A DNA stretch of 64,000 bases from Vitreimonas sp. (GTDB taxonomy: Bacteria > Patescibacteriota > Microgenomatia > UBA1400 > PJMF01): positions 1,199,705-1,263,704 of the forward strand of contig DASPLQ010000012.1 in assembly GCA_035627515.1 (NCBI GenBank). The letters are read 5' to 3'. The translations under genes and the position numbers were made by a program. The notes under the pieces are model-generated. The model did not search any database and had not been told where the DNA came from. It worked only from the letters and a program-made list of their open reading frames with translations. Position 1 is the first letter of the stretch, and every line of letters begins with the position of its first letter. Shown here piece after piece: positions 7,870 to 47,141 of this stretch.

Positions 7870-8060
7870 CTGCATATAGACTAAAAAAGCGCTGGTGATT
7901 AGCACTCGCCATCTCAATACCATTGAGCGCTGATGGGGGAACATCCCATCCGGGTAAGCCCGTGATTGCAGGAATAAGCATATCGAGGTGGCACCGTTCC
8001 TAACCTCAGGAACCCTCTTATCTTCATCACACGTGTGGTGGGTATAAGAGGGTTTTTTTA
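7870..8060 (+). promoter_or_regulatory. putative T-box leader (tRNA-sensing attenuator) upstream of serS
   Basis: 280-nt untranslated leader. Extended -10 TGGTATACT near 7853. GAGGTGGCACCG (7985-7996) resembles the T-box core GGGTGGNACCG. Terminator CCCTCTTAT...ATAAGAGGG + T7 at 8014-8059 lies immediately before the serS RBS. Confidence 0.4.
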
Positions 8061-8080
8061 TGAGTTAACAAAGGAGACAC

Positions 8081-9349: not shown

Positions 9350-9395
9350 CAGCCTGAGCGACTTGCGCTTCAAATAACAGTGTTTTGAAAAACCG

Positions 9396-10379: not shown

Positions 10380-10433
10380 CCGCTAACTACCAGTGACTTT
10401 TTAAAGCCTATCTGCCATAATCGAGCTTCTCTT

Positions 10434-13370
10434 ATGCTGAAATTTATTACCGATCTTTTCGACGAAAATAAGAAAGCCCTTAAGCGCTACCAGGCTATAG
10501 TGGACCAAATCAACGCCTTGGAGCCCAGTCTCAAAAAGCTAAGTGATACCAAGCTGGCAGCACAAACCAAAAAGTTTAAAACTATCATTAAAGACAGCCA
10601 AACTGCTGGGCGAGCTGATCAAGATATCTTAAACGAAATTTTACCTGAGGCCTTTGCTACCGTCCGTGAAGCTTCACGCCGTGTCTTAGGCATGCGGCAT
10701 TTTGATGTCCAACTTCTGGCAGGCATTGCTCTCCACCATGGTACTGTCACTGAACAAAAAACTGGTGAAGGCAAAACGCTTACCGTCACGGCACCACTCT
10801 ACTTGAATGCTCTTCTTGGCAAAGGGGTGCAGCTGATTACCGTCAATGATTATCTAGCCGAAGTTGGGGCAGGGTGGATGGGGCAACTCTACCATTTCCT
10901 CGGTCTTAGCACCTCAGTGATTGTGCACGATAAAGCTAAACTCTATAACCCAGATGTCGATAGCGAAGAGCGGGGAGATGAACGCTTAGAGCACTTTCAA
11001 GATATTTCCCGCCAAGCCGCTTACTCAGCTGATATTACGTACGGCACCAATAATGAGTTTGGTTTTGATTATCTCCGCGATAACATGGTGCAAGAACTCA
11101 ACCAAATGGTTCAGCGTACCGATACACCTCACTACTTTGCCATCGTGGATGAGGCTGACTCTATCTTGATTGACGAAGCCCGGACGCCATTAATTATTTC
11201 CGCTCCTGATACAGAACCTACCCAAAAGTATTATGAATATGCGCAAATGGTCAACGTCTTGGTCAAAAACATTGATTTTAAACTCGATGAAAAGGCCCGG
11301 TCCGTAACCTTAACAGATTTAGGTGTCAAACGTATCGAACAAAAACTCGGTGTCAGCAACTTATATGAGGAAAGCTTTGACACTATCCACCACGTGGAGA
11401 GTGCCCTCAAAGCCATGACTCTCTACCACCGAGATAAAGAGTACATCATCCGCGATAACCAAGTCATCATTGTCGATGAACACACCGGCCGTTTAATGCA
11501 TGGCCGTCGGTACTCAGATGGTTTACACCAGGCTATTGAGGCTAAAGAAGGTGTGCCTATTCAGCAAGAATCTCGTACATTAGCCACGATCTCACTTCAA
11601 AACTACTTCCGTCTCTACACCAAGCTTTCTGGTATGACAGGTACTGCCGTTACCGAAGCTGAAGAGTTTAAAAAGATTTATGACATGAACGTGTTGCCTA
11701 TTCCTACCAACGTGCCAGTTGTCCGGCATGATGGTACGGATCAGGTGTACAAAACTACAGCCGCTAAATATAGTGCTATTGTTCGCGAAGTTGAAGTTGT
11801 TCATGCTGAAGGCCGACCGATCTTAATTGGTACCCGATCGATTGATCACAATCAAATTATCTCCAACTTTTTAAAGCGAAAAAATATTCCTCACCAAGTC
11901 CTCAATGCTAAAAACAATGAACAAGAAGCCTTTATTATTGCCGATGCTGGTAAAAGGGGCTCGATCACTGTCGCCACTAATATCGCCGGCCGCGGTGTGG
12001 ACATTGTGTTGGGTGGTTCTAAACCTGAATTAAAAGATTACCGGAAACAGAAAAAAGCCAGCGATAAAGCCAGTGCCAAGACCGCCACCAAAAACACATT
12101 AGTAGAGGAACTGCGCTTACCACCGTCTGTAAATCCCGATAACTATAAACTCAAAGAGTATGCAGCTGCTCTGAAAAAATGGCAGGCAGCTCATGACGAA
12201 GTCGTCAGCCTCGGGGGTCTTCATATCATTGGTACTGAACGTCATGAATCGCGGCGGATTGATAATCAGCTCCGGGGTCGGGCTGGCCGCCAAGGTGATC
12301 CTGGCTCATCTCAGTTCTTTGTCTCACTCGAAGACGACATTATGCGTATCTTCGGCGGAGAGCAAATTGCCAAGGTCATGGATTTCCTGAAAATCGATGA
12401 AAATCAAGCTATCGAACATAGTATGGTCAGTAAGTCAATTGAGTCAGCCCAGGTGAAAGTGGAAGGGTTCTTCTTTGATCAGCGCAAACGATTGGTGGAG
12501 TTTGACGATGTGATGAACAAGCATCGTGAAATCATTTATAAACGTCGCCGACGCTTACTGGAAGAATCTGAAATGCTCAAAGAACAAATTTTGGAGTACT
12601 TACGCGACGAAATGGAAGCCATGGTGGCACTACGAGCTCCTCAAAACTTCACTGCCGATGAGTATGATGCCATCGTCAAAGAATTCATTAAAATTATCCC
12701 TTTCGATGATAATTCTCAAGCTGAGCTGCGAAAAACGCTTTCTCAATTGACTCAACCAGATGACATTGTTTCTAAATTAATGGAGATCACTACTACAGTG
12801 TATAAAACTCGAGAAGAGGTGGTTGGGACGTCAGCTATGCGCCAGTTAGAACGTTACGTGACCTTATCCACGATTGACGAAAAATGGATGGAACACCTGG
12901 ATGAGATGGATAATTTGCGTGATGGTATCTGGCTGCGTGGTGATAAAAACACGGTTTTAGCCGAGTATAAAAAGGAAGGATTCTCGATGTTTGAGCAACT
13001 CATCGCTCAAACAGAGTCAACCATTGCCAATCGCATTTTCAGAGTTCACATCCAGAATCAACCCCAAGTTCGAGTTGATTTATCTCAAGCGAAAGAAATT
13101 AAAGATGACGTCTTTGAACCACTTGAAAAAGAGGTCCAAGATGCAACTTTACCAGCTGCCGCGCCACGCCAAATCAAAGGCCAAGCTCAGGATTTAGCCG
13201 CGGCTCTAGCCTCAGCCAAAAGTACTTCTCGTCCATCCGTTTCTAGTTCCGATCCTTATGCCAAAGTTGGTCGTAATGATCTCTGTCCGTGTGGCAGTGG
13301 CTTAAAGTACAAAAAATGTGGTTTAATCAATTCTGCTGAGCATCAGGCCAAAACTGAAAATGCAGCATAA
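10434..13370 (+). CDS. secA: preprotein translocase ATPase SecA
   Basis: 978 aa. DEAD-like motor motifs. C-terminal zinc-binding tail CPCGSGLKYKKCG. Lys-rich insertion around aa 530-570. Confidence 0.95.
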   Translation: MLKFITDLFDENKKALKRYQAIVDQINALEPSLKKLSDTKLAAQTKKFKTIIKDSQTAGRADQDILNEILPEAFATVREASRRVLGMRHFDVQLLAGIALHHGTVTEQKTGEGKTLTVTAPLYLNALLGKGVQLITVNDYLAEVGAGWMGQLYHFLGLSTSVIVHDKAKLYNPDVDSEERGDERLEHFQDISRQAAYSADITYGTNNEFGFDYLRDNMVQELNQMVQRTDTPHYFAIVDEADSILIDEARTPLIISAPDTEPTQKYYEYAQMVNVLVKNIDFKLDEKARSVTLTDLGVKRIEQKLGVSNLYEESFDTIHHVESALKAMTLYHRDKEYIIRDNQVIIVDEHTGRLMHGRRYSDGLHQAIEAKEGVPIQQESRTLATISLQNYFRLYTKLSGMTGTAVTEAEEFKKIYDMNVLPIPTNVPVVRHDGTDQVYKTTAAKYSAIVREVEVVHAEGRPILIGTRSIDHNQIISNFLKRKNIPHQVLNAKNNEQEAFIIADAGKRGSITVATNIAGRGVDIVLGGSKPELKDYRKQKKASDKASAKTATKNTLVEELRLPPSVNPDNYKLKEYAAALKKWQAAHDEVVSLGGLHIIGTERHESRRIDNQLRGRAGRQGDPGSSQFFVSLEDDIMRIFGGEQIAKVMDFLKIDENQAIEHSMVSKSIESAQVKVEGFFFDQRKRLVEFDDVMNKHREIIYKRRRRLLEESEMLKEQILEYLRDEMEAMVALRAPQNFTADEYDAIVKEFIKIIPFDDNSQAELRKTLSQLTQPDDIVSKLMEITTTVYKTREEVVGTSAMRQLERYVTLSTIDEKWMEHLDEMDNLRDGIWLRGDKNTVLAEYKKEGFSMFEQLIAQTESTIANRIFRVHIQNQPQVRVDLSQAKEIKDDVFEPLEKEVQDATLPAAAPRQIKGQAQDLAAALASAKSTSRPSVSSSDPYAKVGRNDLCPCGSGLKYKKCGLINSAEHQAKTENAA

Positions 13371-13420: not shown

Positions 13421-13807
13421 ATGATTGCTGACTACACCCAAACAATTGTGGTCGCTGAAGACGACCCTTTTTACAGTAGTATTCTCCGCTTTAAATTAAC
13501 TGCTTCTGGCCATAAGGTAATTGTGGTGCAAGATGGAAACGCAGTGTTGGAAACTATCCGCATAAACCAACCTCGATTGCTAGTTTTGGACCTGATTTTA
13601 CCTGGCAAAGACGGTTTTGAAATCCTCAAAGAAATTAAAACTTCTTCAGACTTAGCTCAGTTAAAAGTCGTTGTACTAACTAATCTCTCTCAACGTGAAG
13701 ATCGCGCACAAATCACCAATTTAGGCGCCGAGGAATACATCATCAAAACTAATATCTCAGTCCATGAAATGATGGATGCTCTCTCCCAACACCTAGACAC
13801 TAACTAA
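13421..13807 (+). CDS. single-domain response regulator (CheY-like receiver)
   Basis: 128 aa. Receiver-domain signatures (VVAEDD, LLVLDLILPGKDG, conserved downstream Thr and Lys). Confidence 0.8.
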   Translation: MIADYTQTIVVAEDDPFYSSILRFKLTASGHKVIVVQDGNAVLETIRINQPRLLVLDLILPGKDGFEILKEIKTSSDLAQLKVVVLTNLSQREDRAQITNLGAEEYIIKTNISVHEMMDALSQHLDTN

Positions 13808-13934
13808 AATTCGCCTTTTATTTGTGAGTAATTTAAATTCATCTTGGGCATAACCTCAATAAATGGTACTGTTAGTATAGGAGTGTATTTTTTTTGCCTT
13901 ATCGATAATACACAAGAATAAACTCTAGCTCCGA

Positions 13935-16790
13935 ATGCCAACCGCTTATCTTAACTTTATCAAATGTGCCCGTTGGCAAGCTCAACTGAGCATCGGGATT
14001 GCACTTATAGTGCTCTTGGGGTGGTTATTAAAAATTGAACTCCTCAAGCGGATTTATCCTAGCTTTGTGGCTATGAATCCCACCACAGCCATAGCCTTTA
14101 TCCTCCTTGGTGCCAGTGTAGTGTGGCATTCTCAGCGCAACCATAGCGTTATTGCTTCCTGGGCCAGTAAGCTCAGTGGTCTCAGCGTTGCCATCATCGG
14201 TGCCACAAAAATATTTAGCATTATTACCTCAATAGATCTAAAAATCGATCAAATATTATTTGTTTCTCAGCTCAATGAAACCGCAATTAACTTACCGAAT
14301 CGAATGGCACCAAACACTGCTTTTAATTTTTTATTGTTGGGATCTGCCATCATTTTTTTGAGTACTAAATCCCGCTGGTTACAAAAGGTTTGCCAAATCC
14401 TCATCTTTATCTCGGCGTGCATGTCTATGCTGGCAATCGTCGGTTACTTTTACAACTTTGTGAATTTATACGGTATACCGACATATATTCCTATGGCCTT
14501 ACATACCGCCCTGAACTTTATCAATTTAGCCATTGCTATCGCATTCGTTGAACCTAACACTAGCTTTGTTTCGTGGTTTGTTGACCAAGGACTTATTATT
14601 AATAAGTTTAAAAATTTTGGTGTCCGTACAAAGCTGTTTACTGGATTTGGGATCTTGCTCGTTATTTTTATTACTTTTGCTTTTATTACCCATACCAATA
14701 TAACTACTATTCAAAATAATCTCATTCCATTACGGGCTAAGATCCGCAATGCCCGCATAGCGGCTTTAGAAATGCGTAGGTACGAAAAAGACTTTCTAAC
14801 ACGTGATGTAGCGGGTGAATACAATAACTCTTTTTACACAAACAATGAAAGTGAAAATCTCAAAATGTGGCATAAAAACTATGCTTATTTTATTGAGAAT
14901 TTAGACGCTCTCATAGCTTTTCATCAACAAGAAAATAATACTGCAGAGGTGGAAAAACTCACGACCCTTAAATCTAGTATAAATGAATATTATGCGAATT
15001 TTTTATTGATTGTAGCCAAATATAACATGCGTGGCTTTAAGGACTATGGCTTGGAAGGGGAAATGCGCAGAACTATCCAAGACTTAGAGACTTTAACTTC
15101 CTCGCCAGCTGAAGCAGTTTTCATTTTACAAGCTCGTCGTGGGGAAAAAGATTTCTTCTTGCGCAATGACATCCAAGAATTGGAGCGTTTTAAAACAGCT
15201 ACTGAAAATTTAAAAGTTCTTTATGCCTCTCAGCCAGCCAAGATGGCTTTGCTCCAACGATATATTGACACTTTTCACCATATCGTCAGACTCAAAACAG
15301 AGATAGGACTGCGAATTGACAATGGGTTAACCGGAAAAATGAGAGTAGCCATCAATCAAGCTGAACCCGTTTTAGAAGCAGAAGAAGTATCTATTTTAAA
15401 CCTCACCAATAATCGAATTGATGTCATCCAAAAAACTGTTTTAGCCCTGACCGGTTTGTTTTGTTTAATTGGTATTGGTTCTGCTGTTGCTACCTCACAA
15501 ATCATTTTGCGCTCGTTACGCAAGGTGGAGTATGTCGCAGAACAAATTGCTGCTGGGGATCTTTCTCAACGTATCGAAACTACTGCGAAGGATGAAGTTG
15601 GCCACCTCTCACAGGCATTTAATGATATGGTTACCAAACTGCAATTAGCTCAAAATAAGTTAGCTGCTGCCAAAGCCCAAGATGAAGCTCTATTAAGCAG
15701 TATTGGTGATGGCGTGTTTGCAGTTGATACTGAGCTGCGTTTAATTTTAATCAATAAGGTGGCGGAAAAACTTATTAACATAAAAGCACAAGAGGCTTTG
15801 GGTAAGCACTATCATGACATTTTCGCTTTTAGCTATGAGGATGAACCTGGCAAAGCTTATCCCGATTTTGTGAAACAAGTCATCACTAATGGGCAGGTCG
15901 CAAGTCTGGAATCTCGCACCCTGCTGAAGACAAGCGATGGTAACTTCATCCCGGTAGCCGATAGTGCCTCACCCATTACTGACGCTCAAGGTAATATTAT
16001 TGGTTGTATTGTAGTCTTTAGAGATGTCACACAAGAACGGGAACTAGAGCAAGCCAAAGATGATTTTTTATCAGTGGCCGCACATCAACTTCGAACACCA
16101 CTGGGCAGTATGCGCTGGAACATCGAACTAGTCCAAAATGGTGATGTGGGACCGATTAGTGACACCGTCAAAGAGCGCTTGAGTCAAGTTTACCAAAGTA
16201 TTCATCGCATGATTAGTTTAGTTAATGATCTTCTTGATGTCTCTCGAATTGATCAATCGCGAGTCCAAGAAACCCCACAGCCAGTTGAACTTCATTCTGT
16301 CATAACAGAGATGATTGCCGATCTGAATGGTTTGGCTGAAGAAAAGAAAATAACAGTAGCTTTCAATAGAGAAAATCGGCCTTTACCTAGTTTAGTTATT
16401 GATCAGACACATTTGCGACACGTGCTTCAGAACCTCCTCTCCAATGCCATTAAATACAACCGTCCCAATGGAAATGTCACAATTACTACCTACCTTCAGC
16501 CAGATGGTATTCAAGTTTCCATTGCTGATACCGGAATTGGTATACCTGATGCTGACCAAAATGAAGTTTTCTCGAAATTTTATCGTGGTGAGAATGCTTT
16601 GAAGAGTGCCACAGAAGGTTCAGGCTTAGGACTGTTCGTAGTTAAGTCGTATATTGAAGCTTGGGGTGGCAAAATTTGGTTCGAGTCTAAAATTGATCAG
16701 GGGACCACTTTTTACTTTACTCTTCCCATGCATCCCAACCAACACGCTTTAGGTACCCATTTAGCTTCGGTCCAAAAAACAGTACAATAA
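13935..16790 (+). CDS. sensor histidine kinase with large N-terminal multi-TM sensor, HAMP, PAS, HisKA and HATPase_c
   Basis: 951 aa. More than 6 predicted TM helices in the first about 250 aa. HAMP (AEQIAAGDLSQRIETTAKDEVGHLSQAFNDMV). H-box DDFLSVAAHQLRTPL. N/G1/G2 boxes (LSNAIKYNRPNG; DTGIGIP; GSGLGL). Confidence 0.85.
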   Translation: MPTAYLNFIKCARWQAQLSIGIALIVLLGWLLKIELLKRIYPSFVAMNPTTAIAFILLGASVVWHSQRNHSVIASWASKLSGLSVAIIGATKIFSIITSIDLKIDQILFVSQLNETAINLPNRMAPNTAFNFLLLGSAIIFLSTKSRWLQKVCQILIFISACMSMLAIVGYFYNFVNLYGIPTYIPMALHTALNFINLAIAIAFVEPNTSFVSWFVDQGLIINKFKNFGVRTKLFTGFGILLVIFITFAFITHTNITTIQNNLIPLRAKIRNARIAALEMRRYEKDFLTRDVAGEYNNSFYTNNESENLKMWHKNYAYFIENLDALIAFHQQENNTAEVEKLTTLKSSINEYYANFLLIVAKYNMRGFKDYGLEGEMRRTIQDLETLTSSPAEAVFILQARRGEKDFFLRNDIQELERFKTATENLKVLYASQPAKMALLQRYIDTFHHIVRLKTEIGLRIDNGLTGKMRVAINQAEPVLEAEEVSILNLTNNRIDVIQKTVLALTGLFCLIGIGSAVATSQIILRSLRKVEYVAEQIAAGDLSQRIETTAKDEVGHLSQAFNDMVTKLQLAQNKLAAAKAQDEALLSSIGDGVFAVDTELRLILINKVAEKLINIKAQEALGKHYHDIFAFSYEDEPGKAYPDFVKQVITNGQVASLESRTLLKTSDGNFIPVADSASPITDAQGNIIGCIVVFRDVTQERELEQAKDDFLSVAAHQLRTPLGSMRWNIELVQNGDVGPISDTVKERLSQVYQSIHRMISLVNDLLDVSRIDQSRVQETPQPVELHSVITEMIADLNGLAEEKKITVAFNRENRPLPSLVIDQTHLRHVLQNLLSNAIKYNRPNGNVTITTYLQPDGIQVSIADTGIGIPDADQNEVFSKFYRGENALKSATEGSGLGLFVVKSYIEAWGGKIWFESKIDQGTTFYFTLPMHPNQHALGTHLASVQKTVQ

Positions 16791-16791
16791 C

Positions 16792-17205
16792 TTGATTACG
16801 TCTATGAACTCACCCTCTCCCAACTCCACTGCCACTAAAAGATATGTATTAGTCGCTGAAGACGATGTTTTCTACAGCAACATATTTAAACTTAAGCTAA
16901 CTGCAGCAGGTTATGAGACTGTAGTGGTCAGCGATGGACAACAACTTTTGACTGCTGCCAAAAAAAAGCTTCCTGATTTGATCTTGCTTGATTTAATTAT
17001 GCCTATAATGGATGGTTTTGAGACATTACAAGCTCTCAAAAAAGATCCAAATCTTAAAACTGTCAAAGTAGTGATTATGTCTAATCTAGGACAAGAAGAA
17101 GATGTCCAAAAAACAATGGGCCTAGGTGCGGAAGATTACCTCATCAAAACCAATCTTTCCGTTCAAGAAATGGTCGCTGCAGTTCAAAAATACCTTCTTA
17201 ACTAG
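16792..17205 (+). CDS. single-domain response regulator (CheY-like receiver), paralog of 13421..13807
   Basis: 137 aa. Start is 2 nt after the HK stop. About 45% identical to the upstream receiver (LVAEDDVFYSNIFKLKLTAAGYETVVV...). Confidence 0.8.
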   Translation: MITSMNSPSPNSTATKRYVLVAEDDVFYSNIFKLKLTAAGYETVVVSDGQQLLTAAKKKLPDLILLDLIMPIMDGFETLQALKKDPNLKTVKVVIMSNLGQEEDVQKTMGLGAEDYLIKTNLSVQEMVAAVQKYLLN

Positions 17206-17253: not shown

Positions 17254-18954
17254 ATGTTGCTGCCCTATGATCCTGCCCAGCTGTTAGCTTCCTTACAAGA
17301 GTTAAATTTGATTGAAGAAACAGCACTTCAAAATGCTTATCAAGAGAGCACAGCAACTAATTTGCCTTTTGATCAAATCCTTCTCAGACTAAATTTAATC
17401 TCTGATGAAAATCTCGGTAAAGTCATCGCTGAATTAATTGGCATTCCATATGTTCATCTATCACATGTGCATATTCCGGCTCCAGTTCTGAATCTCATTC
17501 CTGAAACTTTCGCAAAAAAACACCATGTGATTGTTTACCAAAATGAGAATGGCCAGGTTGCAATCGCTACCAGTCACCCACAGAATTTAGTCGCTCAAGA
17601 ATTCATTAAGCGAGCAGTGAATGCGGAGCTAAAAGTGGCCTATACTACCCAGCGAGAACTGACTCAAGCTTTAAGCCTCTACACCCCTGATATCAAAAGT
17701 GTCATTACGCCCTTGATAGAAACTAAGTCCGGGGAGCAACCCATTATTGAAATTGTAGATAACATTTTAGGATATGGTTATAAGTATAAGGCTTCTGACA
17801 TTCACATCGAACCGATCGATGAATACTCATTGGTGAGAATGAGAATAGATGGCGTGCTCCATGATTCCTTGGAACTACCGATCAAACTTCATGAGCAAGT
17901 TGTAACCCGCATCAAAGTTTTAGCCAAACTGCGCACTGACGAACACCAAGCTGCCCAAGATGGTAAGTTGCAGTTTGACGTTGATGAAGAACCTGTCGAT
18001 GTCCGTGTCTCTATTGTACCCATTACTAATGGTGAAAAGATCGTAATGCGGTTACTGTCAAAACAAGCTCGTGAGTATTCACTTCAAGACCTAGGTATTT
18101 CATCTTCCGATCTCGATAAAATTAACCGTGCATATGAAAAGCCGTATGGCATGATTTTATCCACTGGGCCAACGGGATCTGGTAAAACGACCAGTCTTTA
18201 TACCATCCTAAAAATGGTTAACAAACGCGACATTAATATTATGACTATTGAAGATCCAGTGGAATATACTATTGCCGGTATTAATCAAATTCAAGTTAAC
18301 ACCAAGACAAATTTAACTTTTGCTGCTGGTTTACGTTCCATAGTTCGTCAGGACCCTAATGTCATCCTAGTCGGTGAAATTAGAGATGAAGAAACAGCGG
18401 GCATTGCTGTAAATGCCGCTATGACTGGTCACTTAGTTTTGTCCACATTGCACACCAACAATGCCGCTACTGCTATTCCGCGCTTATTAGATATGGAAGT
18501 TGAACCTTTTTTGGTCGCATCTTCCATTAATGTCATTATTGCCCAACGGCTGGTTAGAAAAACATGCTTACGCTGTCGTGTTTCTAAAGAAGTAACATTA
18601 AGTGAATTGAGTTCTAAAACGTCTGAGCAATCTGACGGCGCCGTTGATCAAATGGGCGAAGCACACTTTACTCAGCTGAAGCATCACTTTGATGACCAGG
18701 AAAAAATCAGAGTTTATGAGGGCAAAGGTTGTGAAGTTTGCCATCATACTGGATATGTGGGCCGGATTGGCATCTTTGAAGTTTTGGAAATCACCGAGGA
18801 AATTCGCCAAGCTATTACCGATCGGCAAGACGCAGGAAATATTCAAACACTAGCAATGAAACAGGGCATGACTACTATGTTCGAGGATGGTTTAGAAAAA
18901 ATGAAACAGGGCCAAACTACCTTAGCCGAAATTTTACGCGTCACCAAAGAGTAG
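17254..18954 (+). CDS. pilB: type IV pilus assembly ATPase PilB (GspE family)
   Basis: 566 aa. N-terminal GSPII_E_N domain. Walker A GPTGSGKTT. Tetracysteine motif CLRC...CEVC. Confidence 0.85.
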   Translation: MLLPYDPAQLLASLQELNLIEETALQNAYQESTATNLPFDQILLRLNLISDENLGKVIAELIGIPYVHLSHVHIPAPVLNLIPETFAKKHHVIVYQNENGQVAIATSHPQNLVAQEFIKRAVNAELKVAYTTQRELTQALSLYTPDIKSVITPLIETKSGEQPIIEIVDNILGYGYKYKASDIHIEPIDEYSLVRMRIDGVLHDSLELPIKLHEQVVTRIKVLAKLRTDEHQAAQDGKLQFDVDEEPVDVRVSIVPITNGEKIVMRLLSKQAREYSLQDLGISSSDLDKINRAYEKPYGMILSTGPTGSGKTTSLYTILKMVNKRDINIMTIEDPVEYTIAGINQIQVNTKTNLTFAAGLRSIVRQDPNVILVGEIRDEETAGIAVNAAMTGHLVLSTLHTNNAATAIPRLLDMEVEPFLVASSINVIIAQRLVRKTCLRCRVSKEVTLSELSSKTSEQSDGAVDQMGEAHFTQLKHHFDDQEKIRVYEGKGCEVCHHTGYVGRIGIFEVLEITEEIRQAITDRQDAGNIQTLAMKQGMTTMFEDGLEKMKQGQTTLAEILRVTKE

Positions 18955-18955
18955 T

Positions 18956-20035
18956 ATGAACATTAGTCTTAATCAAAAAATCCAGTTCTTTTCCCATGTT
19001 ACTTTAGTGGAAAAAGCTTTATTTACGAAGCATTTAGCTACTTTAATTCATGCTGGTATTCCCTTGGCAGAAGCTCTAGCCACCTTACATGAAGACCAAC
19101 ATTCCACTTTAAATACTATTATTGGTGAGATGCAAACAGACATTGAAAACGGTTTATCGCTAGCAGCTACTTTGCACAAACATCCCCAAGCTTTCGATAA
19201 TTTTTATGTCAGTATGATTGAGGTGGGGGAGACGGCAGGAACCTTAGAAGAAACTCTTAGTTTTTTAAGCAACCACCTCTCTAAGGAATATATTTTACGT
19301 CAAAAAATAAATGGAGCCATGATGTATCCAGGTGTAGTTTTCTTTGCTACTCTCATCATGAGTGGTTTTATTGCTTTGTTTGTTCTGCCTAAACTCACCA
19401 CTTTTTTTGATGCTTTTGAAATAGAGTTGCCGCTCAGCACGCAAATTTTATTAGCGGTAGCCAACTTTATGAGCAGCTATGGAATTGCCTTTTTTGCTGG
19501 AGTAATAGGAGTGATTGCTCTTGTAATATGGCTTCTACAACTGCCTATGATTAAACCGCATTGGCATCGAATTGTCTTAAAAACTCCTTTATTTGGCAAA
19601 CTACTCCAGTATACCCAAATCGCTCGCTTCACCAGAAATTTGAGCGTCTTATTAAAAAGTGGGGTGCCTATTACTCAATCTCTCGCAGTTACTACTCACA
19701 CGCTGAGCAATGTTGTCATTCAGCACGATATTGAACGCTTAGTCAACTCACTCAAAGCTGGCACTACCATGGGTAAGGCACTCAAAGAGGGTAATTATCC
19801 TCGCTTCCCGCAGCTGATGAAAAAAATGATTGCCGTGGGTGAAAAAACCGGGAAACTCGAAGACACCTTGCACTACGTAGCCGAGTTTTATGAAGAAGAA
19901 ATTGACACTGTCAGCAAAAATCTTTCCACAATTTTAGAGCCAGTACTATTGATTGTCATTGGCTTAGTAGTAGGTTTTGTAGCACTCGCCATTATCGGCC
20001 CCATTTACAATTTAACGGGCTCCATCGGTCGGTAG
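18956..20035 (+). CDS. pilC: type IV pilus inner-membrane platform protein PilC (GspF family)
   Basis: 359 aa. Two GspF-like repeats with 3 TM segments. Start is 2 nt after the pilB stop. Confidence 0.8.
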   Translation: MNISLNQKIQFFSHVTLVEKALFTKHLATLIHAGIPLAEALATLHEDQHSTLNTIIGEMQTDIENGLSLAATLHKHPQAFDNFYVSMIEVGETAGTLEETLSFLSNHLSKEYILRQKINGAMMYPGVVFFATLIMSGFIALFVLPKLTTFFDAFEIELPLSTQILLAVANFMSSYGIAFFAGVIGVIALVIWLLQLPMIKPHWHRIVLKTPLFGKLLQYTQIARFTRNLSVLLKSGVPITQSLAVTTHTLSNVVIQHDIERLVNSLKAGTTMGKALKEGNYPRFPQLMKKMIAVGEKTGKLEDTLHYVAEFYEEEIDTVSKNLSTILEPVLLIVIGLVVGFVALAIIGPIYNLTGSIGR

Positions 20036-20041
20036 GGAACA

Positions 20042-20464
20042 ATGATGCAACAAGGCGTGACACTCATCGAGTTATTGCTAGTGATCGGTTTAATGCTGAT
20101 CGTCGGCATGATGGCATCTCCATTTATTTCCCAATTCCTGACTTACAACTCATTTGACATAGCAGAACAACAACTACAAGGCAACTTACGCAAGGCTCAA
20201 GCATATGCCATGGATGGCAAACAACCCGGACCTTGGGGAGTATGTTTGAGTGATCGGATGATCCGTTTATTTAGTGGCACCTGTGCCAGTCCCACTCATC
20301 ACGAAGACTTTGAGTTACCAACTACTGTTACTGTCACTGGCCTCAATACGGTTACTTTTAACAATCGGGGTGAGCCCTCCGCAGCCTTATCAATCACCAT
20401 TACGACACCGCTAGAAACAGCCACTATGGTACTTAATCAAAGTGGAGGACTAAGTGTTAATTAA
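20042..20464 (+). CDS. prepilin-type (class III signal) minor pilin/pseudopilin
   Basis: 140 aa. MMQQG|VTLIELLLVIGL with Gly-1/Glu+5 followed by a hydrophobic helix. Confidence 0.65.
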   Translation: MMQQGVTLIELLLVIGLMLIVGMMASPFISQFLTYNSFDIAEQQLQGNLRKAQAYAMDGKQPGPWGVCLSDRMIRLFSGTCASPTHHEDFELPTTVTVTGLNTVTFNNRGEPSAALSITITTPLETATMVLNQSGGLSVN

Positions 20465-22247
20465 GTTTATCGAGCGCCATCATTTTCCTTTCCCATCTCA
20501 CCTTCAGAGTGGATTTGGATTAGTGGAAACCATTGTAGCCGTTGGCTTATTTATGATAATTGCCGGGGGCGGAGCATCGGTTATCCTCCAGAGTTTGACT
20601 CTCAATCGCCTCAGTGAAAACCAAACTGATGCCACATTATATGCTCAAGAAGGTTTAGAGGCCACGCGCTCACTTCAGCGCCAAGGCTGGTCAAACATGA
20701 GCCTAGGCACGTATGGTTTATCTAGTAGTAGTGGCGGATGGGCTTGGACGGGCACAAACAATACCAAAGGCGTGTTTACACGTCAAATTGCCCTCACTTC
20801 TGTTCAACGTAATGGGAGTGGAACAATTGTTACTAGTGGTGGCACAGTTGATCCTGACACGATTAAAGCTACCTCTACAGTGACCTGGAATTTCACGCCT
20901 ACCCGCAGCAACTCTGTTAGCCTCAGTCAGTACTTTACTAACTGGACCAAACAAATTGGACGCGGAGGAATGTTAATTTATGCTGATTACTCGGGAGCCG
21001 ACGACGTCATCCGATATAAAACCCTTGGTGCAGATGGAACTTGGTCAAGTGAGCAAACTGTTCCCGATACTGGTGTCCCGCTTGATAGACCTACCCGGCG
21101 CGTGGATCTTTACACCTCTACCACTCGTAACGAAAAAATCCTTATTTCCAAGCACTTTGCCAATGGCGCTGGCAATGATCAATACGTATATGCCCAAGTC
21201 TGGAATGGCAGTAGCTGGGGCAATGTAGTCCAACTCAGTTCATGGGCTGGCGCCACTAATCCCGAGTTGAGAGGTTATGACGGCGCTTACTTGAATAATG
21301 GTAACTTCTTACTAGTGTATCAAGATAATACTACTACTCCAAAATATCGCCTGTGGAATGGTACTTCATGGTCAGCCGCCACTGCTACGACTAATATTGG
21401 TTCCACCCCGGAATGGATCGTACTCAAAAATAGGCCCGGGACCAATGAAGCTATGGTAGCCACTGCCGATACAACTCTAGATACTAATACTTTTTATTGG
21501 AACGGGTCTAGCTGGAGTGGGGCTACTGAACATGCGACTACTTTACCACTGATCACTGCCCAGCCCATTGATTTCACTTGGAATAAAAATACTTCTACTA
21601 CAGGGGCGTTGGTATATAACGATGCCAATGATGCCACACCGGTAGTAAGAATATGGAATGGCAGCAGTTGGAGTGGGGCTGTGCAAAATCAAAATATCGG
21701 AGGCAACACACGTTCCATGCAGCTGGTAAGTTATCCTAGTAGTAATACTTTTCTAAGTTGTATCAGTGATGCCAACACGCAAGCAGATATTAATTGTTTG
21801 CGCACAGATTTCACACCTTCCTGGAACACAGTCACTAATGGCGAAATTGCTACCGATAGTGATATCGGTACCCAACGTTCATTTTCGCTCGCCTTCGAGA
21901 AAAATACTCCTACCACCGCACTGAGTGTTTATAGTAATGGTGTACTAGCAACTGACCGGAATATTCCAAAATATCGTTTATTCGATGCAAGCACTCACAG
22001 CTTTAGTAGTGAATCAAGTCTGTCCACTGTGGGAGCAGAACTAGAAAGTGTAGAACTTTACCCTCATCCTAGCAGCGATGACATTATGGTGGTAATGGCA
22101 GCAACCGATCAGGATTTATGGACAGTGCAGTGGGACGGCAGTAGCAATCAGTTCTATACCACTGGGGGCAAAGCTCAAACGGAACAAGCTCTCAATGGCT
22201 CCACTGACCAAGATATTTGGTTTGACTTTGCATGGGATGAAAATTAA
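20454..22247 (+). CDS. large prepilin-type protein with repeated WNGSSW(S/G) modules (putative pilus tip adhesin / minor pilin)
   Basis: 597 aa. N-terminus SG|FGLVETIVAVGLF has F+1/E+5. Four or more repeats (VWNGSSWGN, LWNGTSWSA, YWNGSSWSG, IWNGSSWSG) at about 60-aa spacing. Overlaps the upstream gene by 11 nt. Confidence 0.6.
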   Translation: MLIKFIERHHFPFPSHLQSGFGLVETIVAVGLFMIIAGGGASVILQSLTLNRLSENQTDATLYAQEGLEATRSLQRQGWSNMSLGTYGLSSSSGGWAWTGTNNTKGVFTRQIALTSVQRNGSGTIVTSGGTVDPDTIKATSTVTWNFTPTRSNSVSLSQYFTNWTKQIGRGGMLIYADYSGADDVIRYKTLGADGTWSSEQTVPDTGVPLDRPTRRVDLYTSTTRNEKILISKHFANGAGNDQYVYAQVWNGSSWGNVVQLSSWAGATNPELRGYDGAYLNNGNFLLVYQDNTTTPKYRLWNGTSWSAATATTNIGSTPEWIVLKNRPGTNEAMVATADTTLDTNTFYWNGSSWSGATEHATTLPLITAQPIDFTWNKNTSTTGALVYNDANDATPVVRIWNGSSWSGAVQNQNIGGNTRSMQLVSYPSSNTFLSCISDANTQADINCLRTDFTPSWNTVTNGEIATDSDIGTQRSFSLAFEKNTPTTALSVYSNGVLATDRNIPKYRLFDASTHSFSSESSLSTVGAELESVELYPHPSSDDIMVVMAATDQDLWTVQWDGSSNQFYTTGGKAQTEQALNGSTDQDIWFDFAWDEN

Positions 22248-22803
22248 TATGTGGCACTTTAAAAAATCCCCTCCCCAGTCTGCATCTACAGCCGCACAAG
22301 CTGGTTTTACCTTGATCGAACTCATCTTATATATAGCTTTAATTAGTATTTTCTTGAGTGCTGTCATCACCTTTGCCTGGGATATCATTTATAGCCATGC
22401 TAAATCCAGTACGCAACAAACAGTTCTTTATAACCTGCGGTTAGCGAGTGAAAGAATTACCTATGAAATCCGCAATGCTCGCGCCATTAACAGTGTTTCT
22501 GCTACCTCACTTTGTTTAGCATCAGCTGATGCCGCTCGCAATCCTACCAAACTTTATCTCGCCTCCAACGAACTGCGAATTGGCTGGGGTGGAGGAAACA
22601 GTACTTGTGCTACAACCACCAATGATCAAGCACTGACGAGTGCTGAAGTAAACGTAACGGCACTCACTTTCCAAAACCTAACTACCGCAGGAACTGCTTC
22701 ACAGCATATTCAATTTACAATCGGGATTACCAGTACTGCTAATCGCCAAGAATGGCAGTACTCACAAACGTTTAGTAGTAGTGCAGAAGTGAGGTCACAC
22801 TAA
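22237..22803 (+). CDS. prepilin-type minor pilin
   Basis: AAQAG|FTLIELILYIALISIF is a class III signal. Start is either 22237 (overlaps the previous stop) or 22249. Confidence 0.6.
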   Translation: MKINMWHFKKSPPQSASTAAQAGFTLIELILYIALISIFLSAVITFAWDIIYSHAKSSTQQTVLYNLRLASERITYEIRNARAINSVSATSLCLASADAARNPTKLYLASNELRIGWGGGNSTCATTTNDQALTSAEVNVTALTFQNLTTAGTASQHIQFTIGITSTANRQEWQYSQTFSSSAEVRSH

Positions 22804-22806
22804 GTT

Positions 22807-23199
22807 ATGAAACGACACTGCACATTACCTTCTTCACCTGGCTACATTGCTCTCTCAAGTATGCTCATGATAGCTGCTATCATTGTCATCATTGGCACCA
22901 CAGCGTCATTGCTAGCCATCAATGCTGGACAAATTTCCCTGGCAGATACCCGCCAAGAAAATGTGCTTAATTTAGTTGAAAGTTGTATTGAAGACAGTTT
23001 GTTGCAGCTTAACAAAAGTAATACTTTACCATCATCACTCAGTTTGCCTGAAGGTAACTGTACAGTCACGCTTAATTCACAGGTGGGCAGTGTATGGACC
23101 TTCACCATTTCAGCTACCTTAAATGGACACACCAAAACCCTTCAAGTTACCACCAACCGTACTACCCAATTAACAATTACCAACTGGATAGAACAATAA
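22807..23199 (+). CDS. pilin-like protein lacking Glu+5 (GspK/PilX-like minor pilin candidate)
   Basis: 130 aa. SPG|YIALSSMLMIAAIIVIIG hydrophobic N-terminus directly after the pilin genes. Confidence 0.45.
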   Translation: MKRHCTLPSSPGYIALSSMLMIAAIIVIIGTTASLLAINAGQISLADTRQENVLNLVESCIEDSLLQLNKSNTLPSSLSLPEGNCTVTLNSQVGSVWTFTISATLNGHTKTLQVTTNRTTQLTITNWIEQ

Positions 23200-23222: not shown

Positions 23223-24566
23223 ATGTTTGATAAAAAAAGCTTTGTCCTCACCTTTTTACCTCAGCACCTTTACCTTCATAAAGTAGTAGCTGGTAAACCT
23301 GAAGCTAAAGAATTACTTTTTGAAGCTGATTGGACTAAGGCTACACTGGCCACAGTGTTGGCATCGCTCCAACCACACTTAGAGTCACAGCCGGTGGGAA
23401 TTATTCTCAGCGATCACTTCAGCTATGTACTCAGTGTCCAAGCACCACCTTCTGATTCACCAAATTTAGTAACCACTCTTAGTTCCTTAATCCCTGAAGA
23501 TCTGACTCAGACTTTATGGCACTCAGCAGTTATAACGGAACAAAATGAAGCCCGCACTCTGCAAGTAGTCGTCTTAACTCATCTCTTTTCTACCGAGCTA
23601 TTGCCACTTTTTCACGCTGCTGAGATAGAAATAAAACAGCTCCAACCCATATCTATTATCTTAGCCCACAGCTCTAACCTCGATACCTCATATGTTAGTT
23701 TATATGCTGATTCATATCATTATCTGGGTGCAGTAGTTGAAAAAGACGCAGTAAAATTTACTAAAACCTTTTCCCCTTCATTTAAAATTTCAGATTTAAC
23801 CTCTTTCTTAGCGTTTGCCAAAACAAGTACTCCTGATCTGACAACGATTGAGTTAAATGGCTTACATATTAATGGTGATGACCCCACATTACGTGCTTAT
23901 CACTTGCATGAAAAAAACCTGGACTTACAAACGTCTTCAGTAGCAGACTCACTCTCACACAATACGTTTAGCCCCGAAACCTTAAATAATTACCATCCGC
24001 TTAAAACAGATGACACGATTCCAGCTGGAACTCAGCGGAGCGGTAAACCTTCATCTCCTCGTCATCATAGTAGATCGTGGTGGATGGGGATGGGGGTCTT
24101 GTTTTTGGCACTAGTGTTGATGACCGCGGCTGCCAGCTTTTTCATAATTCCACTCCTCAATCAACGTGCTGCGTCTGTCCAACAATTAGAAACTCAATTG
24201 GAGCAAGTGGCCAGCCCTACACCTTCACCACTTACCTCTCCTTCCCCTGCCACTACGCCTATTCCTGAAGAGAGTCCTGAACCTGGAGTTGTTAGTAATT
24301 TAAGAGTTAATGTCTTAAATGCGAGTGGTAAAAGCGGGGAAGCTCAAAAAGTAAAAACGGCCCTCACAGAGTTTGAGTTTGCAAAAGTCGATCTTGGCAA
24401 CACAGAACCTGGCACCGCTACTACCTCAACTCTTCAAGCTAAAGCCAGTGTACCTCCTCAAACCCTCACTGATATCCAAACTATACTCAACAATTATGAC
24501 TTGATCACCTCTGATCCATTGACACCCTCAAGTGAATATGATGTAGTTATAGTGATTCGCAATTAA
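23223..24566 (+). CDS. pilus-assembly membrane protein (PilM/N/O-like topology) with C-terminal LytR_C-like domain
   Basis: 447 aa. Cytoplasmic N-terminal region of about 280 aa, then a TM (WWMGMGVLFLALVLMTAAASFFIIPLL), a Pro/Ser/Thr linker, and a C-terminal LRVNVLNASGKSGEAQKV (LytR_C-like). Confidence 0.35.
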   Translation: MFDKKSFVLTFLPQHLYLHKVVAGKPEAKELLFEADWTKATLATVLASLQPHLESQPVGIILSDHFSYVLSVQAPPSDSPNLVTTLSSLIPEDLTQTLWHSAVITEQNEARTLQVVVLTHLFSTELLPLFHAAEIEIKQLQPISIILAHSSNLDTSYVSLYADSYHYLGAVVEKDAVKFTKTFSPSFKISDLTSFLAFAKTSTPDLTTIELNGLHINGDDPTLRAYHLHEKNLDLQTSSVADSLSHNTFSPETLNNYHPLKTDDTIPAGTQRSGKPSSPRHHSRSWWMGMGVLFLALVLMTAAASFFIIPLLNQRAASVQQLETQLEQVASPTPSPLTSPSPATTPIPEESPEPGVVSNLRVNVLNASGKSGEAQKVKTALTEFEFAKVDLGNTEPGTATTSTLQAKASVPPQTLTDIQTILNNYDLITSDPLTPSSEYDVVIVIRN

Positions 24567-24593: not shown

Positions 24594-25085
24594 ATGTCAA
24601 AATCTGCCCGTCATTACTTGTCTCAGGGATTCACCCTGATTGAGTTATTAGTCGTAATTGCCATTATTTCCATTTTGGCAGTCGTCGTATTTGTAGCTTT
24701 AGACCCTGTGACACGCTTCCGCGATGCTCGCAATGCTCGCCGTACAGCAGATGTTCAAAATTACTTAACTGCCATCCACCAATGTATCGTGGATAATAAA
24801 GGTAGTCTCACTCCTTGTGTAGGTACTTTGACTGCTACCAATACCTATGAAATTGTGAGTAGTGGCGCTGCCGGTTGTGATGATGTCTGTACGGGCGCAA
24901 CCAGTGACTCTAGTTGTGCAGATCTGGACACAAACTTAGCTAAGTACTTAAAAACGTTACCTCTTGATCCTGGTGGTGTTGCCACCGGTCATACTGAGTA
25001 CTCAATCAGCATTGATGCTAATAACTTGGTCACCATCCGCTCTTGTGCGGCTGAGGGTAGCACTACTATCGAGGCCTCTCGTTAA
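24594..25085 (+). CDS. pilA: type IV major pilin (PilA-like)
   Basis: 163 aa. Canonical QG|FTLIELLVVIAIISILA. C-terminal Cys pairs. Strong RBS and strong terminator downstream. Confidence 0.8.
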   Translation: MSKSARHYLSQGFTLIELLVVIAIISILAVVVFVALDPVTRFRDARNARRTADVQNYLTAIHQCIVDNKGSLTPCVGTLTATNTYEIVSSGAAGCDDVCTGATSDSSCADLDTNLAKYLKTLPLDPGGVATGHTEYSISIDANNLVTIRSCAAEGSTTIEASR

Positions 25086-29350: not shown

Positions 29351-30223
29351 ATGTCTCGCCGCCTGATTGTTACCCACCACGCTCCAGATTTAGATGCTAT
29401 TGGCGCTGTATGGCTGCTCAAACGTTTTGACAGCCAGCATTATGCCGACGCCAAAATTGCTTTTGTAAATCCTGGTGACACTATCACTTTAGAAGAAGCC
29501 GAAGAATTTGGAGTCCAACTGCATGAAGTCACTCATGTGGATACAGGCTTAAGCGAATTTGATCATCACCAACCCGATCGCGGTTTGCAATATATTAGTG
29601 CCACCTCATTAGTGTATGACCATATTTGTAAAATTCACCCCGACTTAGTCGATGACAAAGCTTTAAAAATTGTGGTTGAGTTCACTACCGAGACTGATCA
29701 CCTTGGCGAAGTCCATTGGCCTGATGCATCATCTGCTCGGTATAACTTCATGATTCATGAATTAATCCGTGGCACTGAGTTTACTGACCCTCACACTGAT
29801 GACTCACAACTTCACTTTGGGATGATGTGTTTAGATAGTGCCTACGCTAGTCTCAAACAACACGTCCGGGCAGCTGAGATCGTCGCTAACGAAGGCATTC
29901 AATTTGATATTAAGATCGGTAAATGTTTAGCGGTAGAAACTCGGAATGACGACACTATTAAGCTGGCTCAAAAACAAGGCTATGTGCTAGTCATTCGCAA
30001 AGACCCTGAAGAAGGTAACATCCGCATCAAAGCCCGCCCTGATGTTGAGCTGAGCCTTAACGCAGCAGCAGAGGCAATCACTAAGCTCGATACTAAAGGC
30101 AGTTGGTACAATCATCCCAGTGGCAAAATGTTAATTAATGGCTCCCGCAAACACCGCAACCAAAAAGCTAGTCCACTGACATTGAATCAAGTGATTGAGA
30201 TTATTAAGAGACTATATTCATAA
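29351..30223 (+). CDS. DHH-family phosphoesterase (NrnA-like)
   Basis: 290 aa. HHAPDLDAIGA (motifs I/II) and FDHHQPD (DHH motif). Confidence 0.6.
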   Translation: MSRRLIVTHHAPDLDAIGAVWLLKRFDSQHYADAKIAFVNPGDTITLEEAEEFGVQLHEVTHVDTGLSEFDHHQPDRGLQYISATSLVYDHICKIHPDLVDDKALKIVVEFTTETDHLGEVHWPDASSARYNFMIHELIRGTEFTDPHTDDSQLHFGMMCLDSAYASLKQHVRAAEIVANEGIQFDIKIGKCLAVETRNDDTIKLAQKQGYVLVIRKDPEEGNIRIKARPDVELSLNAAAEAITKLDTKGSWYNHPSGKMLINGSRKHRNQKASPLTLNQVIEIIKRLYS

Positions 30224-30227
30224 AAAT

Positions 30228-30995
30228 ATGCCAAATGATGAAAGCTCTAAATGGTGGCTTCAAGGACAATTTGCTGAGCGGTGGCAAAAACCCGATGCTT
30301 CACCCCAAACAGCTAATAGTAGTCATAAAAGTGAAAACTCACCCTGGTGGCATAGTCATTTAAAACCCCAGGATCTAGCACTACCCGTTGAACCCCCTGT
30401 AAATAATGAATTTCATGAGAACCTGATCGCGACTTTTGGTTGGAAGTTGCATTTAAATTTCGACGCACAAAACCCCAAAAATAAATCCAATATTGAAGCT
30501 CTTCGATTATTTCTAAGCCAATTAAAAAATGATGGCTCCATTGCTCATTACAAAATTGGCGATGGAGGTGGTAAAGCAGATGATCAGCCAGGCAAAGAAG
30601 CAACAGTGTATGTTGGTTCTAGGAAAAAAGCTAAAGAAGCAGCGAAGAAAATCTTAGATAACAAAACAGTTAAAGAATTTTTACTCCCAGCAGAAGATTC
30701 AACTTTAATTGATGATGTACCATATGATTCATTAACTGGTGATTTCTTAATTAGCGAAGATTCTGTTGCAAGCATAGACAAGTTACCGTCTAACCTAAGC
30801 TATTTAATTATGGGAAGGTTCGATATTAGTAAAAAGAATCCTGACTTTCATCAATATGGTGGACATGGAATTCCACTCTTAAAAGTTGACGCGCCAGTGC
30901 CATGGGATCCGAGAGAACCTGCTGAAAGAATCAATAATAAACGGAAAGCATATAAAGCATTAGTTAAAGAATACGGAACCTTTTTCACAGGATAA
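30228..30995 (+). CDS. hypothetical protein
   Basis: ATG at 30228 lies 4 nt after the DHH stop (the track ORF from 30195 overlaps the DHH gene). No recognisable motif. Gly-rich segment IGDGGGKADDQPGKEATVYVGS. Confidence 0.45.
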   Translation: MPNDESSKWWLQGQFAERWQKPDASPQTANSSHKSENSPWWHSHLKPQDLALPVEPPVNNEFHENLIATFGWKLHLNFDAQNPKNKSNIEALRLFLSQLKNDGSIAHYKIGDGGGKADDQPGKEATVYVGSRKKAKEAAKKILDNKTVKEFLLPAEDSTLIDDVPYDSLTGDFLISEDSVASIDKLPSNLSYLIMGRFDISKKNPDFHQYGGHGIPLLKVDAPVPWDPREPAERINNKRKAYKALVKEYGTFFTG

Positions 30996-46829: not shown

Positions 46830-47141
46830 GTGATAAGAAAAGAAACTCTTATTCCCTTTATAGGAGTTTTAATCTTCTTTGCGTTTGTTTCTTGGTTTGT
46901 TTATGGGCACTGGGTTGAACTCCATTGTATAAGTTATGGGCATAACCATAGGAGCCCTAACAACGAATTAATCCCGGCAACAGAAGAAGAAAAGAAGCGT
47001 TTTGGGCTAAGCGAAACAGCCACTATTTCACTGTCATTACACTATCAGGATCAATGCCAAAGAGCTCTTTGGTTTAATGTTTTTAACCAATCTCCATCTG
47101 CCACGTTCACTAGTTTAAAAGCATATTTACTTGATAACTAA
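46830..47141 (+). CDS. small membrane-anchored hypothetical protein
   Basis: 103 aa, N-terminal TM. Overlaps the next gene by 11 nt. Confidence 0.35.
   Translation: MIRKETLIPFIGVLIFFAFVSWFVYGHWVELHCISYGHNHRSPNNELIPATEEEKKRFGLSETATISLSLHYQDQCQRALWFNVFNQSPSATFTSLKAYLLDN

Follow-up and report, generated by a model that had tools for sequence, protein, structure and literature searches.

Modular pilins, in which a small pilin module carries a bulky functional module, have been described in the type IV pili (T4P) of Streptococcus sanguinis, whose subunits PilB and PilC bear a vWA and a lectin module, respectively; predictions place both exclusively at the tip of the filament, and they act with a GspI-like partner in a tip complex (PMC8179133, PMC9934059). 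Modeling of PilB indicated that bulky modular pilins are compatible with the tip only (PMC8179133). In the Patescibacterium TM7x (Nanosynbacter lyticus), PilX2, a minor pilin of the thin T4P-2 pilus, likewise joins a pilin helix to a C-terminal beta-propeller; it has been proposed to be a tip adhesin and is needed for normal host binding and not for filament formation, as its deletion halves host binding while filaments still form (PMC11623550, PMC12206443). The PilY1/PilC adhesins of type IVa pili (T4aP) also present a propeller at the tip together with four core minor pilins and have roles in both adhesion and priming. The general idea of a propeller-bearing or modular pilin is already in the literature. 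Here we describe a gene for an unusually large pilin-like protein of 597 amino acids (aa), referred to below as the giant pilin, which lies at positions 20454 to 22247 of a 64-kb stretch of contig DASPLQ010000012.1 (the window). What is new is the combination of a GspI-class carrier with a predicted eight-bladed propeller that has no model in the copy of Pfam searched here, fixed within the core pilus operon across Candidate Phyla Radiation (CPR) lineages. The gene and its parts are as follows, a slash marking the predicted cleavage site here and below.

20454..22247, + strand: modular minor pilin gene, 597 aa, with a GspI/PilV-slot pilin module and a predicted eight-bladed beta-propeller (open reading frame, translation, homologues and AlphaFold2 model)
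20454..20513, + strand: leader peptide, aa 1-20, ending in Gly-1, with predicted prepilin-peptidase cleavage after G20 (sequence SG/FGLVE)
20514..20684, + strand: pilin alpha-1 helix, aa 21-77, with a hydrophobic N-terminal half and Glu+5, the putative membrane anchor and filament core (DSSP, weak N_methyl match)
20706..20939, + strand: the pilin module's predicted globular beta-sheet, aa 85-162, GspI/PilV class
20961..22244, + strand: predicted eight-bladed beta-propeller module, aa 170-597 (428 residues), with blades at aa 170-225, 226-282, 283-330, 331-381, 382-430, 431-485, 486-541 and 542-597
21759..21797, + strand: Cys436 and Cys448, on neighboring strands of blade 6 (strands 432-439 and 446-452)

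The original prediction, which was of a real 597-aa reading frame opening with a prepilin signal, is borne out. The reading frame starts with GTG, the sole canonical start 5' of the cleavage motif, behind a GGAGGA Shine-Dalgarno sequence, and its first 11 nucleotides (nt) overlap the end of the preceding pilin gene, stop codon included, an arrangement commonly seen in translational coupling. The N terminus of the product reads ...HLQSG/FGLVETIVAVGLF, placing G20 at -1, F21 at +1 and E25 at +5, and the junction of leader and mature protein in full is MLIKFIERHHFPFPSHLQSG/FGLVETIVAVGLFMIIAGGG. A leader ending in glycine, a hydrophobic residue at +1, Glu+5 and about 20 hydrophobic residues, which together make up a class III signal, are all present in SG/FGLVETIVAVGLFMIIAGGG. 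Among 65 members of the family, Glu+5 is kept in 64, Gly-1 in 55 and Phe+1 in 41, and from these features we infer that a prepilin peptidase cuts after G20.

A full-length AlphaFold2 model, built on an alignment of 64 homologues, reached a mean predicted local distance difference test score (pLDDT) of 92.5 and a predicted template modeling score (pTM) of 0.80, and a separate model of the pilin module reached a pLDDT of 91.4. Both models place a helix at residues 23 to 77 by DSSP, and the full-length model adds a sheet at residues 85 to 162, giving the predicted lollipop fold of a pilin, a long helix on an antiparallel sheet, with a globular module that in the model resembles GspI-type pseudopilins. 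Beyond a boundary at about aa 163-171, our own count, short bridges included, was of 32 strands between residues 172 and 594, corresponding to eight four-stranded blades. The pilin helix and propeller that had been anticipated were thus both found by structure prediction, and the protein has the build of a modular pilin, an N-terminal pilin module followed by a separate folded module that also occurs in nonpilin proteins. The possibility that the repeats are disordered or of low complexity, raised beforehand as a reason to doubt them, was checked in the same model: residues 1 to 15, in the leader region, are the only ones below pLDDT 50, and the repeats are therefore not disordered.

When the family alignment was cut into blades and the blade profiles were compared, blades 1, 3, 5 and 7 matched one another at 93-98% probability and the blade pairs 2-4 and 4-8 matched at 88-95%, while blade 6 had diverged. 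This alternation of two blade types implies a propeller in which a unit of two blades, about 105 residues long, is repeated four times. Cys436 and Cys448 are both kept in 63 of 65 homologues and probably form a disulfide, as expected in an extracellular protein; the conserved pair and a 39% content of Gly, Ala, Ser and Thr fit an exposed extracellular protein. The net charge of the propeller is -21, the family having a median of -9 and a range from -39 to +8.

The repeats that first drew attention to the protein fall within this propeller.

21201..21221, + strand: WNGSSWG motif of blade 2, aa 250-256, in the hairpin of the second and third strands
21354..21374, + strand: WNGTSWS motif of blade 3, aa 301-307, with W301 and W306 invariant in the family
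21498..21518, + strand: WNGSSWS motif of blade 4, aa 349-355
21654..21674, + strand: WNGSSWS motif of blade 5, aa 401-407
22131..22145, + strand: degenerate WDGSS motif of blade 8, aa 560-564

In blades 2 to 5 of the model, WNGSSW is the tight hairpin that leads from the second strand into the third. Matches to W[ND]G[ST]S number five in the giant pilin and at most one in any of 100,000 shuffles of the protein. The original prediction of at least four repeats of about 60 residues centered on this motif stood as far as the motif was concerned, there being four exact copies of WNG(S/T)SW plus WDGSS, but the period is nearer to 50 residues (spacing 48-52) and the units number eight, four of them degenerate, rather than just four. 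Tandem Repeats Finder detected no tandem repeat in the DNA, and the repeats are visible at the protein level only, which implies that they are old and diverged. Gly and Trp account for most of the residues that are invariant in the family, as is typical of structural positions in repeats, and conservation is highest at aa 225-234, a stretch on a strand that reads [RS][ND]EK[IV][LMV][IVL][ST][RK]H.

Searching 5.8 billion proteins yielded 327 homologues of the giant pilin, which among the matches listed were 35-52% identical to it and mostly covered 94-99% of the query. When 1.84 billion cluster representatives were searched exhaustively with a profile, 1,059 clusters were matched at an E value of <=1e-30 and 5,234 at <=1e-10. 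Most of these matches are full length, at 570-620 aa; some pilin variants are longer, at 650-900 aa. The propeller by itself (profile positions of about 160-585) was also found once each in proteins of 1.8-2.6 thousand amino acids (kaa), and proteins of 6.7 and 7.9 kaa contain many partial copies of it (P0184, P0188, P0159, P0176 and P0181 in the profile search). These larger proteins have hydrophobic N termini resembling signals or membrane anchors and carry no prepilin motif; two of them bear five or six LamG_3 (concanavalin-type) domains, along with DUF2341, Ig or fn3 domains.

The propeller is without a covering model in the Pfam copy searched, both in the giant pilin and in the larger proteins; the Pfam and NCBIfam scans gave on it only a subthreshold match to DUF2510, a short W-x-G-x-x-W-like motif. 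PF26696 is precomputed for some family members, among which P0003, P0021 and P0026 had no match in our Pfam copy even at an E value of <=10, and it is perhaps a model added recently for some part of the WNGSSW propeller. Profile searches of the Protein Data Bank (PDB) with the full-length protein and with the pilin module gave only weak matches to pilin helices and a chance match to LigA. A full-text literature search found no paper describing the family.

The giant gene sits in the middle of a pilus locus, whose pilin-like genes encode products of 140, 597, 202, 130 and 163 aa.

13421..17205, + strand: response regulator (128 aa), 951-aa histidine kinase and response regulator (137 aa), directly upstream of pilB (open reading frames)
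17254..18954, + strand: pilB/gspE-type assembly ATPase (Pfam T2SSE 3e-128, MshEN 1.6e-13)
18956..20035, + strand: pilC/gspF-type platform protein (Pfam T2SSF 2e-54, synteny)
20042..20464, + strand: minor pilin p140, 140 aa, GspH/FimU/ComGD slot, G/VTLIE (Pfam GspH 5e-4, at the cutoff)
22249..22803, + strand: minor pilin p202, about 184 aa, GspJ/PilW/ComGF slot, G/FTLIE (Pfam N_methyl 7e-6, weak NCBIfam ComGF)
22807..23199, + strand: pilin-like p130, 130 aa, GspK/PilX/ComGG-type cap slot, G/YIALS without Glu+5 (weak Pfam ComGG match, 0.027)
23223..24566, + strand: 447-aa membrane protein with a C-terminal LytR_C domain (Pfam LytR_C 1e-7)
24594..25085, + strand: major pilin candidate, 163 aa, SQG/FTLIELLVV (Pfam N_methyl 1e-7, TIGR02532 above the cutoff)

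The giant pilin occupies the second position of the H-I-J-K order of minor pilins, and we assign it to the I slot because it is flanked by p140, which is GspH/ComGD-like (its NCBIfam match to ComGD, at 6e-9, is below the model cutoff), by p202 with its Glu+5, and by p130 without it. For p202 the longest reading frame, 22195-22803 (202 aa), shares 53 nt with the 3' end of the giant gene; the in-frame ATG at 22249, 2 nt past the giant-gene stop, gives a 19-residue leader before G/FTLIE and is the likelier start. Glu+5 is present in 22 of 22 homologues of p202. An assignment of p202 to the J class by PDB profile search was dropped, only generic pilin helices having been matched, and its J slot therefore rests on gene order. 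Lack of Glu+5 is a hallmark of cap pilins of the GspK/PilX/ComGG type, and in the 12 homologues of p130 examined Gly-1 is always present and position +5 is never Glu; C60 and C85 are invariant in p130. The 163-aa pilin, the most conserved pilin of the operon, is probably the major subunit.

The same arrangement recurs widely. We compared 37 loci from species-representative genomes, together with loci from Woesebacteria, Falkowbacteria and Saccharimonadales; the labels of the 37 comprise Kerfeld-, Davies-, Shapiro-, Levy-, Ames-, Berkel-, Woese-, Falkow-, Moranii- and Roizmanbacteria, WWE3, Saccharibacteria and Parcubacteria. Across the 37 loci and at least 12 CPR lineages the order is nearly invariant: after pilB and pilC (with histidine kinase and response regulator genes ahead of them) come genes for a pilin of about 140 aa, for the giant pilin, for another pilin of about 170-200 aa, for a pilin-like product of about 125 aa and, last, for a pilin of about 160 aa. 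Upstream of the giant gene, the pilB-pilC arrangement of the window is conserved in 32 of the 37 loci, and the p140 gene lies directly 5' of the giant gene in 29. Median tblastn identity to the window proteins was 45% for PilB, 43% for the 163-aa pilin, 39% for the giant pilin, 35% each for PilC and p130, 33% for p202 and 30% for p140, and the giant family is 31-48% identical over nearly its full length. The 951-aa histidine kinase is a membrane protein with PAS/HAMP-like regions, and the succession of histidine kinase, two response regulators and pilB is also seen in the Woesebacteria and Falkowbacteria loci (Pfam calls) and in most of the 37, which suggests that the pilus operon is under two-component control.

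Several loci depart from the common order. On Falkowbacteria contig JBAXJX010000001.1 (loci L003/L026; L026 positions 8001-11475) the giant pilin is duplicated in tandem, its paralogues of 559 and 582 aa each showing 37-38% identity to the protein of the window; no other tandem duplication was found among the 37 loci. Tandem paralogues were also suspected at gaps of about 2 kb behind the giant gene in L010, L012 and L015; L010 and L015 gave no second long match to the giant pilin, and the gap in L012 holds an unrelated gene. That gene (9855-11507), an insertion that separates the giant pilin from the following minor pilin, encodes a 550-aa protein that has a membrane anchor, a propeller of another kind, with NLWFTE repeats, and a C terminus that by eye is M23-type-like; it may be a cell wall hydrolase recruited into the minor-pilin operon. 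In L004 (8476-12526; Saccharimonadales DATIIO010000035.1) the protein in the first minor-pilin slot, of 504 aa, contains DUF2341 and Laminin_G_3 domains, and the giant pilin reaches 841 aa; two bulky modules may here share one tip complex, and the 504-aa protein may be related to the jelly-roll-bearing PilX1 of TM7x. The 447-aa LytR_C protein of the window, encoded between the cap-type and major pilins, has a central membrane segment and a Pro/Ser/Thr-rich linker; it was found by tblastn at that position in 6 of 37 loci and is a possible assembly accessory.

Set against the described systems, the giant pilin comes closest to TM7x PilX2, which also has PLL-type lectins among its nearest folds (PMC11623550). 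PilX2, however, is heptabladed with RCC1 repeats, whereas the giant pilin is predicted to have eight blades and neither it nor the 65 family members match RCC1; PilX2 has no predicted PilD signal, whereas the giant pilin keeps Glu+5; and PilX2 occupies the X/K slot beside the major pilin, in the order pilZ2-pilV2-pilW2-pilX2-pilA2 (PMC12206443, supplementary file 4), whereas the giant pilin is in the V/I slot, directly after pilB, pilC and the p140 gene. These differences, drawn from the description of PilX2 and from gene order, imply that the two are analogous rather than orthologous. The distribution differs as well: the Saccharibacterial pilins are reported to be barely conserved elsewhere in the phylum (PMC11623550), and the giant-pilin family shows the opposite.

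In the modular pilins of S. sanguinis the appended modules are of other kinds and the distribution is one genus, whereas here the module is a predicted eight-bladed propeller without a Pfam model, found in many CPR lineages, and it is borne by the very subunit, that of the GspI/PilV class, which is normally the smallest of the minor pilins. Compared with GspI/XcpV/EpsI and PilV/ComGE, the giant pilin has about 430 additional C-terminal residues and falls short of the PilV and GspI sequence models. Its predicted propeller resembles in fold the PLL/PHL lectins of Photorhabdus and the fungal AFL/FleA lectins, which have seven or six blades rather than eight; identity is 9-14%, and a profile of 65 sequences gave no lectin match in the PDB at an E value of <=1.

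The comparison with PilY1 that had been suggested at the outset holds as a functional parallel and fails as a family relationship. Membership of the PilY1/PilC family was rejected, given that there is no PilY1 domain match, that PilY1 is absent from the fold matches listed, and that the protein is itself a pilin with a class III signal. PilY1 is a nonpilin with a Sec signal that docks on the minor pilins and has a modified seven-bladed propeller forming its own domain family; here the propeller is covalently fused to the pilin.

We think it somewhat probable that the giant pilin is a modular minor pilin that displays a ligand-binding propeller at the pilus tip. Its architecture, a pilin module joined to a propeller, is well supported; gene order, fold and analogy point to tip placement and ligand binding, and tip adhesin stays a candidate role. 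In this model, the prepilin would insert into the membrane and a peptidase encoded elsewhere in the genome would remove the leader up to and including Gly20; the mature protein would then open with a 57-residue helix bearing Phe+1 and Glu+5. By analogy with the core minor pilins of type II secretion systems (T2SS) and T4aP, this helix would join the three neighboring minor pilins in a priming complex on PilC and PilB, beneath which PilB would polymerize the 163-aa pilin, so that the four-pilin complex would come to cap the filament. The propeller, at about 45 kDa, would be too bulky for the filament body and would therefore be displayed at the tip, where it could serve as a binding device for a host or another surface. 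The ligand would most likely be a carbohydrate or a cell-envelope component, because the hairpins carry conserved paired Trp residues (W-x-G-x-x-W), because the nearest single-domain folds are lectin-type, because the propeller co-occurs with LamG in two very large proteins, and because its acidic charge argues against DNA.

Several results weigh against this interpretation. The giant pilin scores 18.2 bits against Pfam N_methyl (PF07963), where the cutoff is 21.2, and 15.6 bits against the NCBIfam PilV model TIGR02523, where it is 52.2; the NCBIfam scan gave no match to the GspI model TIGR01707, and N_methyl matches 31 of 65 family members at an E value of <=0.01 (best, 6e-6). The locus does contain pilB, pilC and five prepilin-type genes, as first proposed, and, again as proposed, neither pilT nor pilD was detected in the 64-kb window: a motif scan found a single Walker A motif of the T2SSE type and, within open reading frames, none of the A24 type, and Pfam scans of 20 other large reading frames, several of more than 150 aa not being included, found no T2SSE or A24 match. 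Lastly, the giant pilin is as conserved as the machinery (39% median identity, against 35% for PilC), which is unusual for a host-specific adhesin; such conservation is in better keeping with a ligand that is conserved, or with a part in structure or assembly, than with an adhesin specific to host strains.

A conserved ligand is the core of a broader proposal, which we regard as possible and advance tentatively, that the WNGSSW propeller is an undescribed binding domain and a common docking device of Patescibacteria, recognizing a conserved part of the envelope such as a cell wall glycan. In most lineages this domain would be fused to a GspI-class minor pilin, and it would also be used in the proteins of 1.8-2.6 kaa, some of them with LamG. 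A conserved envelope ligand would explain why the propeller is as conserved as the pilus machinery.

The same conservation can be read in terms of assembly. An assembly or antiretraction factor comparable to PilY1, in which the propeller is a structural part of the priming complex, perhaps sensing tension, and not primarily an adhesin, would account for a gene fixed in the core operon at essentially every locus examined and as conserved as pilC, and the most conserved stretch, lying on a strand, could then be an interface. PilY1 itself primes T4aP assembly with the same four minor pilins, according to Treuner-Lange 2020 as cited in PMC11623550. For the TM7x propeller-bearing pilin, the finding already cited is that filaments form in its absence, and we consider the assembly explanation rather unlikely for the giant pilin.

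Uptake of DNA is highly improbable as the function. A competence pilus with a Com-like operon, whose propeller captures extracellular DNA for nucleotide-starved CPR cells, would be in keeping with the best, weak NCBIfam and Pfam matches of the neighboring pilins, which are to ComGD, ComGF and ComGG, and large minor-pilin modules do bind DNA in other systems, e.g., ComZ (PMC8179133). The propeller, however, is acidic, the opposite of the known DNA-binding pilin surfaces, no nucleic acid-binding fold is among its top matches, and TM7x mutants of the propeller-bearing pilus transform at normal rates (PMC11623550). Least probable of all is a tip-delivered enzyme, with the propeller acting as a glycosidase, sialidase-like or lyase domain on the target envelope, as sialidases are matched with low TM-scores (0.28-0.40), Pfam gave no catalytic signature, BNR and sialidase included, for the query (E value, <=0.1) or for the 65 family members (<=0.01), and the invariant residues are mostly Gly and Trp, as in structural repeats. 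An Asp-box/BNR propeller, suggested by the string DGTWSS and by WNGSSW, was dropped: there is no BNR or sialidase match, and in place of S-x-D-x-G-x-T-W the protein has W-N-G-S-S-W, in a different hairpin, that of the second and third strands with the blades as sliced.

If the giant pilin does display a binding propeller at the tip, it bears on the open question of how the ultrasmall CPR/Patescibacteria find and hold their host cells, for which it offers a widely applicable target. The only characterized case, TM7x PilX2, comes from one oral lineage, whereas the giant family is large, keeps a fixed slot and spans at least 12 candidate phyla. Residues 169-597 make up a single, well-folded (in the model), expressible target for ligand screens, for antibodies or nanobodies, and for labeling in cryo-electron tomography across CPR groups. 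A recent review states that knockdown of tip-located minor pilins is needed to separate motility from attachment (PMC11665869). The giant pilin also defines a propeller domain absent from the Pfam copy searched, one that recurs in very large proteins, two of which have lectin-type LamG domains.

The original prediction implied a reduced-genome organism of the CPR type. In agreement with this, the SecA of the window (10434-13370) is 68-72% identical to named proteins of Woesebacteria, Pacebacteria and Patescibacteria, 30 of the 37 related loci are labeled Patescibacteria/CPR, and so are the named homologues of the giant pilin; judged by the SecA identity and these labels, the organism is a Patescibacterium. 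NCBI names the window SecA “Vitreimonas sp.”, an alphaproteobacterium, and the 90%-identity cluster of the giant pilin contains HYD35665.1, of the same length and the same label, on a contig of 1,409,690 bp. The label looks wrong. A single contig of 1.41 Mb would be large for a CPR genome.

Elsewhere in the window, seven open reading frames of 226-480 aa had no Pfam match at an E value of <=1e-4 (regions 29351-30995, 44370-45233 on the - strand, 47131-48372, 49401-50081 on the - strand, and 52256-53698), and the GC content is lower, 0.34-0.40, between 46 and 54 kb. In a 797-aa protein encoded at 4226-6619, a lysyl-tRNA synthetase domain of class I (PF01921, 9e-80) is joined to a B3/4 domain (PF03483, 2e-23) at the C terminus. 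This is an unusual fusion, the B3/4 domain being better known from the beta subunit of phenylalanyl-tRNA synthetase.

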